Source: Escherichia coli (lineage in GTDB: Bacteria; Pseudomonadota; Gammaproteobacteria; Enterobacterales; Enterobacteriaceae). From it: 462 nt of DNA. Positions 1 to 462 of the stretch are shown here, in pieces. A program made the position numbers and the translations under genes. The notes below the pieces were generated by a model. The model had not been told where the DNA came from. It ran no database searches and saw only the letters and a list, made by a program, of their open reading frames with translations. The DNA lies in assembly GCF_003334315.1 (NCBI RefSeq), contig NZ_QOWR01000132.1; one strand, 5' to 3'. Position 1 is the stretch's first letter; the number at the start of each line of letters is the position of its first letter.

Positions 1-462
1 GTGCAGCTTATTCTCCACGTGCCAGTGGTTTCGGATTGCTGTGGCGAACTTCTCTGCGGTTAAATCAGCAGAACTGATATAATATCTGACCGTCATTTCG
101 AGCTCTTTCTTTTGTTCTGCTATTATGGACCGAAAGGAGACTGCCACGCATAATTTCTTCAGCCCTTTCCATTCAAACGTGAAATCAATAAGTTCATCAG
201 GGACATCGCAAACAATATGAAGACGGATTTCTTCTCTGCCGTGACTCTTTTCACTCATTGCGTAACTGTCATGCGCTGGATTATTTAATTCTTTCAGCGG
301 AAATTTTTCCTCAAAGGCTTTATTTAGCCGCCCCTGGTTTCCTTTTACCGCGAATAAATAATCACCTCCCTGTTTTTGTATCTTCTCTGCAATATCTTTC
401 TGGCAACCCATCGCATCAGTTGTGATGATTTTTCCTTTAATATCCAGCATGTTAAGAAGTTC
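1..462 (-). CDS. ISAs1-family DDE transposase (H-repeat-associated protein), internal fragment; partial at both ends, roughly the central to C-proximal part of a ~375-aa protein
   Basis: Seen in sequence: minus-strand frame beginning at 462 is open for all 154 codons, while plus-strand frames 1 and 2 stop at 61-63 and 89-91. Recognition from memory, not a database search: motifs [46 protein letters not shown] and [12 protein letters not shown] match my recollection of enterobacterial H-repeat / ISEc1 transposases (Pfam DDE_Tnp_1-type domain). The N-terminal part of the protein would lie beyond position 462 and the last ~60 residues beyond position 1. Confidence 0.88.
1..462 (-). mobile_element. 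Internal portion of an ISAs1-family insertion sequence (ISEc1 / H-repeat-like); terminal inverted repeats and target-site duplication are not in the window
   Basis: The transposase ORF fills the entire window. GC of about 41.6% (192/462 by manual count) is typical of H-repeat elements and lower than the ~50% of enterobacterial chromosomes. An IS of ~1.2-1.3 kb would extend several hundred bp past the right edge and a shorter distance past the left edge. Confidence 0.75.

Follow-up and report, generated by a model that had tools for sequence, protein, structure and literature searches.

The DNA analysed here is a window of 462 nucleotides from Escherichia coli that reads through without a stop on one strand, and it raises the question of whether it belongs to an intact insertion sequence (IS) and, if so, whether that copy is still mobile.

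Location of the window within ydcC

The first-pass annotation had described an uninterrupted minus-strand transposase frame of 154 codons, and this description holds. In a six-frame translation of the window, minus-strand frame 0 is open over 154 of 154 codons (462→1), and the five remaining frames contain 5, 5, 8, 10 and 15 stops. When the mononucleotides of the window were shuffled 20,000 times, the frame never stayed open, so it is far beyond chance expectation at a G+C content of 41.6%. Its translation matches the NCBIfam profile of ISAs1 family transposases (NF033564) with 166.7 bits against a cutoff of 70, over profile positions 129–280 of 314, and also matches Pfam DDE_Tnp_1.

A megablast search of 5,426 complete E. 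coli genomes detected the window in 5,341, with a median of 5 sites in each. An identical match (462/462) occurred only in strain PD007, and K-12 strains match 461 of the 462 positions at ydcC. Identity is 456/462 to the O157-type (Q60*) ydcC allele and 453/462 to yhhI. The window lies in the middle of ydcC (b1460), the ISAs1-family H-repeat (H-rpt) transposase gene of K-12-type E. coli chromosomes. It covers (1–462, minus strand) codons 157–310 of the 378-aa DDE transposase, equivalent to positions 613–1074 of a 1291-bp H-rpt element that lies by pptA in the RhsE region. The sole difference from MG1655 (NC_000913.3) is the third position of His-304, at window position 19 on the minus strand, where CAC replaces CAT synonymously.

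In K-12 and PD007, the locus order is narI, yddE, nhoA, yddH, pptA, ydcC, yncI (a pseudogene), yncO/ydcD and the rhsE remnant. In the PD007 locus (L001), the ydcC ORF runs on the minus strand from 6930 to 5794, and an AAGGAG Shine-Dalgarno (SD) sequence precedes its ATG by 6 nt. The ORF comprises 378 codons, and the expectations of a start codon with a ribosome-binding site and of a full-length ORF of about 370–380 codons were thus borne out. The ATG is reached 468 bp to the right of the window and the end of the stop codon 207 bp to the left, close to the guesses of about 600 and 250 bp. The complete 378-codon ORF, encoding protein WP_000421020.1, was present in every inspected genome with at least 99.8% identity.

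At RhsE, ydcC lies at the distal end of the Rhs element, past the core, tip and immunity ORFs, an arrangement with analogues at RhsB and RhsC; in strain 98197, it comes directly after an RHS core protein. The G+C content of this PD007 stretch (L001 5467–10844) is a mosaic, with values of 51–54% in the housekeeping flanks, 44% in pptA, 40.5% in the ydcC element (41.6% in the window), 37.6% in the yncI element, 27.3% in ydcD and 58.1% in the rhsE core remnant. Such contrasts would fit an independent foreign origin for each of three components, the Rhs core, the tip/immunity region and the H-rpt. In genome MINF_8D (NZ_LR890606.1), an IS1414 (IS256-like) is annotated inside the matched pptA–ydcC–yncI stretch, and the pptA–ydcC match falls into two pieces spread over 3,054 bp instead of 1,731 bp.

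The gene, also known as H-rptE, has been catalogued in the Rhs literature since the 1990s. It is already known, RefSeq annotates it as an ISAs1-family transposase, and all our results are consistent with the existing annotation. The value of the analysis therefore lies in a clear call on the status of this copy, with little importance beyond annotation.

Ends of the element

The limits of the ydcC element were set by three independent copies. Homology to H-rptB (yhhI) and H-rptC2 (ybfL) extends over exactly 1291 bp (L001 7074→5784), with 98.0% and 95.0% identity, respectively, and is lost abruptly on both sides. Both termini read CAGGG, and a single ORF fills element positions 145–1281, its stop codon lying 10 nt from the right end.

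Members of the ISAs1 family typically have terminal inverted repeats of about 14–22 bp and direct repeats of about 8–10 bp. Terminal inverted repeats and a flanking target-site duplication (TSD) had both been proposed as marks of an intact copy, and here the evidence was divided. The CAGGG termini of the ydcC copy do pair, at 10 of 11 positions (CAGGGAAAGAT / CAGGGCAAGAT; CAGGG[A/C]AAGAT), but the repeat is short, with scattered matches only beyond it, so that end recognition by the transposase might be impaired. H-rpt ends occur in two variants (CAGGGAAAGATCATCAG... versus CAGGGAAAGATCACGTAACGC...), and the second left-end variant, present in ybfL and in the M70/ST131 copy, pairs further, at about 15–16 of 21 positions. 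No TSD was found: an adjacent exact direct repeat of at least 3 bp was absent from ydcC and from 10 further copies, which together represent at least seven junction contexts. A TSD marks a fresh insertion and does not define the family. Membership of ydcC in ISAs1 follows from transposase homology, the DDE triad, size and the single-ORF layout, with at best weak agreement from the inverted repeats and none from TSDs.

The ydcC element abuts a second, divergent ISAs1 element, that of yncI (L001 7075–8276), which shares about 67% identity with ydcC and carries a frameshift and stops. It has its own left end (CAGGGCAAGATCATG) at 8276, meets the ydcC left terminus at 7074/7075 and lacks approximately its last 90 bp. 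An inverted pair at L001 5784–5801 and 8259–8276 was considered as the two ends of one 2.5-kb element and rejected, as it consists of the right end of ydcC and the left end of this separate yncI element.

Family, catalytic residues and predicted fold of YdcC

Full-length YdcC matches NF033564 from end to end (profile positions 1–314 of 314; 416 bits against the cutoff of 70), in agreement with the family proposed from the window, and its Pfam architecture consists of DDE_Tnp_1_assoc (residues 9–94) followed by DDE_Tnp_1 (102–343). A search of 1.84 billion representative proteins retrieved 30,245 ISAs1 relatives, as representatives at 50% identity, typically of 370–390 aa. In the narrower comparison with ISEc1, the ydcC element is 98.0% identical to that of yhhI, whose product is named 'ISEc1 family' by PGAP, but PGAP calls YdcC itself 'ISEc5 family'. 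Literature matches to 'ISEc1' proved to be prefix matches to other ISEc1x names, and they thus provide no evidence of ISEc1 activity.

YdcC was aligned with 54 full-length homologues of 35–54% identity. Sixteen columns of this 55-sequence alignment are invariant (R17, D109, G110, K111, Q142, N150, E151, D172, K196, N198, R232, R236, W303, E306, H310 and D314), and YdcC has all 16 residues, including the DDE triad D109/D172/E306. Those encoded inside the window, on its minus strand, include the second catalytic Asp, D172 (codon GAT, 415–417), in the motif ITTDAMGCQ, and the catalytic Glu, E306 (codon GAG, 13–15), in the motif R-x-HW-x-V-E-N-x-LHW, flanked by W303 (22–24) and H310 (1–3). They also include K196 and N198 of the K-G-N motif (AAA GGA AAC, 337–345), as well as R232 (235–237) and R236 (223–225). 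The substitutions specific to K-12-type YdcC (E8G, V22M, E219A, P277L and A373T) all fall in variable columns. Two of them lie inside the window, namely A219 (274–276), which is Glu in every other E. coli copy examined, and L277 (100–102), which is Pro elsewhere.

A sequence search of the PDB with YdcC returned nothing meaningful (the best match was CheY, at E=0.97), and a fold search was therefore needed. The AlphaFold2 model built on the above alignment (pLDDT 93.6, pTM 0.91) places four long β-strands (residues 221–229, 232–242, 259–271 and 274–286) between the second Asp and the Glu, in a segment encoded at 73–270 on the minus strand that includes the invariant R232 and R236. The top fold matches in the PDB were Tn5 transposase (4dm0/1muh, E=3.8e-9, TMq 0.52), followed by piggyBac. 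In the model, strands 221–286 correspond to a putative Tn5/IS4-type insertion domain.

The Tn5 (IS50) transposase resembles the YdcC model in its RNase-H-like DDE core with a β-strand insertion between the second Asp and the Glu, and both proteins have a conserved aromatic/basic signature around the Glu. However, their sequence identity in the structural alignment is about 10%, YdcC has 378 aa against 455–460 residues in the Tn5 chains, and the N-terminal domain differs, being DDE_Tnp_1_assoc in YdcC. The IS4 family profile NF033592 scored 18.8 bits against a cutoff of 115, which places YdcC outside that family and limits the kinship to the level of the fold.

Given its conserved residues and predicted fold, YdcC is probably catalytically competent. 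The N-terminal helical DDE_Tnp_1_assoc domain, presumably DNA-binding, would be followed by the RNase-H-like core (D109, D172 and E306) and the β-strand insertion domain. By analogy with Tn5, YdcC would bind the CAGGG-terminated ends and carry out cut-and-paste transposition; the hairpin-mediated route of Tn5 is likewise attributed to YdcC by analogy only.

Other H-rpt copies and their decay

The closest comparison is the H-rptB/yhhI element of K-12. Like the ydcC element, it measures 1291 bp, with CAGGG termini, a 144-nt leader and a 378-codon ORF, and it adjoins the distal end of an Rhs element. The two products differ at 9 amino acids, and the loci are distinct (RhsB/yhhJ versus RhsE/pptA). 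In K-12, codon 198 of yhhI (L003 5379–6515) encodes Thr in the K-G-N motif, a substitution at a family-invariant position (N198T). YdcC and 54 of 54 distant homologues have Asn there, so YhhI may be impaired despite its open frame. A study of phage-surviving K-12 clones lists T198N, E219A and I25M as 'mutations' of YhhI (PMC11297538). The variants at 198 and 219 coincide with differences between the paralogues YhhI and YdcC, and those reported in that study probably arose from reads mapped to the wrong H-rpt copy, not from genuine mutation.

The earlier statement that several E. coli H-repeat copies are decayed was confirmed for yncI, ybfL, ybfD and the ydcC of O157:H7, and it extends to ybfQ and to the ydcC orthologues of 2015C-3121 and EC931. 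The Q60* mutation (CAA→TGA at codon 60 of ydcC) is found in 2015C-3121 and O157:H7, and 1,036 records, about 19% of genomes, carry exactly this allele. In O157:H7, a 64-bp insertion and a 1-bp indel/frameshift have been added to Q60*; in strain 9234 (L007), this insertion lies at element position ~953, inside the region matching the window. The gene is truncated at its 3′ end in EC931 and reduced to a scrambled remnant in UPEC 536. Intact ydcC alleles could not be counted with the K-12-type 63-mer around codon 60, which also occurs at ybfD and so lacks locus specificity. Judged by its sequence, ydcC is the best-preserved H-rpt ORF in K-12, unlike yhhI (N198T), ybfD, ybfL and yncI.

At RhsC, H-rpt copies are stacked head to tail: C1 is truncated at 381 bp, C2 is complete and C3 lacks its first 24 nt. 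Such stacking suggests repeated insertion beside H-rpt termini, or deletion from them.

Mobility of H-rpt copies in the population

We searched the 5,426 genomes for empty sites, using the joined flanks of three loci (the F138 site, yhhI and M70-type ydcC), and these flanks were contiguous in none of them. The H-rpt copies are thus not simple insertion/absence polymorphisms. Among 72,556 plasmid records, 25 matched, and those inspected were chromosome-like and typed as non-mobilizable. True plasmid insertions were rejected for the inspected records, which are chromosome-like fragments with xerC, Rhs ORFs, nrfB or the ansP–ydcC–yddH locus. Four PLSDB 'plasmids' (NZ_CP055112.1, NZ_OY757120.1, NZ_OY754386.1 and CP054253.1) carry chromosomal genes, among them xerC, an RHS dsORF, nrfB and ansP–ydcC–yddH–nhoA, and several further matching records are 1–5 Mb long. 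These are probably pieces of chromosome or wrongly assigned replicons, which would inflate counts of plasmid-borne H-rpt copies.

The junctions of the ydcC element are of two kinds. The right junction (IRR|ggcattattgtcg..., then pptA) is the same in K-12, 98197, 2015C-3121, O157:H7 and 19KM1831. The left junction varies by lineage, with a yncI element truncated to ~1202 bp in K-12, a yncI-like stretch of ~170 bp in 19KM1831, an RHS core gene 14 bp away in 98197 and other sequence in O157, and the breaks always fall exactly at the CAGGG terminus. M70/ST131 has lost the 5′ part of pptA, together with the intergenic spacer, through a deletion whose edge coincides exactly with the right terminus. 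In M70 (L009 2558) and in CP054253.1 (L014), the right terminus is directly followed by the 3′ end of pptA (…AEIAPQMEALIKK), with no Rhs upstream. These terminus-anchored rearrangements resemble transposase-mediated adjacent deletions, although replacement of Rhs tips by recombination could also give rise to them.

The ISAs1 family, whose prototype comes from Aeromonas salmonicida, shares with ydcC a single-ORF element of about 1.3 kb and the DDE triad. A relative, IS1358, has been transposed experimentally; our literature search retrieved incidental mentions of it only. The mobility of other members has been demonstrated: ISPmar4 was captured in trap plasmids (PMC3281130), and IS1548 insertions alter the expression of several Streptococcus agalactiae genes (PMC7096684). 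In contrast to mobile members of the family, transposition of E. coli H-rpt has not been observed (PMC3032704), TSDs are absent, and the inverted repeat of the ydcC copy is short (10/11). The mRNA of ydcC rises together with those of the IS1, IS2, IS3 and IS5 transposase genes in long-term stationary phase (PMC4032248).

The suggestion that the intact stretch fits a functional copy is thus upheld as regards the complete ORF, the complete element and the invariant residues, but signs of an active IS are missing. The further idea, that of an active IS affecting local genome plasticity, runs against the lack of empty sites in 5,426 genomes, the lack of genuine plasmid copies and the age and vertical inheritance of the copy described below. 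According to the population data, the ydcC copy is not a significant current driver of genome plasticity. It is, nonetheless, a natural candidate for asking whether E. coli H-rpt can still transpose.

Age of the copy and selection on its ORF

A query combining pptA and the element was covered by at least 80% in 2,842 of the 5,426 genomes. In ST131-type genomes, the element lies between ansP and yddH and is the only H-rpt copy. Between strains, ydcC shows dS values of 0.06–0.12 and dN values of 0.012–0.016, and the neighbouring nhoA shows 0.02–0.13 and 0.000–0.016, respectively. As the divergence of ydcC is like that of the neighbouring genes, the copy is old and has been vertically inherited at this locus.

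Pairwise dN/dS among H-rpt copies ranges from 0.05 to 0.33, and same-locus ydcC orthologues have a ratio of about 0.1, like nhoA and yddH; deep comparisons depart from neutrality with P=1e-9 to 1e-13. Individual branches, each compared with the neutral expectation, differ. The branch of M70/ST131, a single-copy genome, has 10 synonymous and 3 non-synonymous changes (P=2e-5), and that of 19KM1831 has 6 and 3 (P=0.004). The Q60* pseudogene of 2015C-3121 has 7 of each (P=0.014), and the K-12-type ydcC has 4 synonymous and 5 non-synonymous changes (P=0.10). Constraint on the window's own copy is thus not demonstrable on the K-12-type terminal branch (4 : 5), a ratio that, as a sequence pattern, would be compatible with relaxed constraint. 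Judging from the substitution patterns, the H-rpt ORF has been constrained for much of its history, which leaves a small possibility of retention at the host level. The dS between the K-12 paralogues ydcC and yhhI is 0.05, and that between ydcC orthologues of deep lineages is 0.11.

Status of the ydcC copy

We consider it highly probable that ydcC (H-rptE) is an intact, old, vertically inherited and quiescent IS copy with a Tn5/IS4-like DDE transposase that is probably competent. It is the single ORF of a complete 1291-bp element between the RhsE remnant/yncI and pptA, a long-standing resident of this locus that decays in several lineages and shows no sign of recent movement within E. coli. 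Many H-rpt copies are decayed, including yncI immediately upstream, ybfL, ybfQ, ybfD and the ydcC of O157:H7, 2015C-3121 and EC931, and the window frame might accordingly belong to a copy that is truncated or a pseudogene and lacks coding potential. We regard this as most improbable, since the window matches the intact ydcC allele at 462/462 positions as opposed to 456/462 for Q60* and 453/462 for yhhI, the complete 378 codons accompany every inspected match of at least 99.8% identity, and the element has its full 1291 bp. An IS that is currently active at a low transposition rate, and that shapes local plasticity by, for example, adjacent deletions, is unlikely as well, albeit less so. It would fit the intact ORF, catalytic residues and termini, the transcription of ydcC and its induction with other IS transposases (PMC4032248), and the lineage-specific left junctions that nevertheless break exactly at the IRL terminus. 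It would also fit the M70/ST131 deletion from the exact IRR into pptA and a ydcC–yhhI dS below that of deep ydcC orthologues, such as recent copying or gene conversion would produce. Yet insertion/empty-site polymorphism is absent at the three loci in 5,426 genomes, 11 copies lack a TSD, H-rpt is virtually absent from the 72,556 plasmids, transposition is stated not to have been observed (PMC3032704), and terminus-anchored junctions can also arise by recombinational replacement of Rhs tips.

Host-level purifying selection could, alternatively, hold a domesticated ydcC at its fixed locus, with roles in, for instance, the turnover of Rhs/T6SS toxin cassettes or stationary-phase physiology; we rate this, too, as improbable. 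The same-locus dN/dS of about 0.1, as for nhoA and yddH, speaks for it, as do the excess of synonymous changes on the M70 branch (10 : 3, P=2e-5), in a genome whose sole copy has no paralogue for gene conversion, the undetectable mobility and the consistent attachment of H-rpt to the distal end of Rhs/Vgr regions. The gene is dispensable, however, with nonsense mutations in about 19% of genomes, a truncation in EC931 and a remnant in UPEC 536. Moreover, the K-12 terminal branch looks neutral (4 : 5), the element retains IS termini and an IS-like 5′ leader, no phenotype has been reported for ydcC, and purifying selection on deep branches could stem from times when the element was mobile, or from functional alleles brought in by recombination. 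It is similarly doubtful that YdcC is a DDE enzyme kept by the host, through domestication or because it is useful under some conditions, and that it remodels Rhs toxin-tip cassettes, with the breaks at the CAGGG terminus as its possible footprint. If it were so kept, YdcC would have been fixed at the edge of an Rhs/Vgr region through much of E. coli diversification, as more than a dormant IS, under purifying selection no weaker than that acting on the neighbouring housekeeping genes, ST131-type genomes with their single copy included. The quiescent IS copy remains our preferred reading.

A predicted hairpin upstream of ydcC

Outside the window, 7–26 nt upstream of the ydcC ATG (L001 6937–6956), a 7-bp hairpin (CUCCUUA-CAUAAU-UAAGGAG) is predicted to sequester the SD sequence. 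Its folding energy is -8 kcal/mol (z=-1.71), and 11 of 200 shuffles fold as well. Rfam searches found no RNA family at E≤1 on either strand of the two tandem elements, and no covariation was available for the hairpin stem. A sigma-70-like promoter (TACACA-17-CATAAT, 9/12) has its -10 box in the hairpin loop; transcription from this promoter would thus leave the anti-SD arm out of the native mRNA, and translation of read-through transcripts would be blocked in the manner of IS10/IS50. The stem is kept in intact copies and is broken (AAGGTG) in the ybfL pseudogene.
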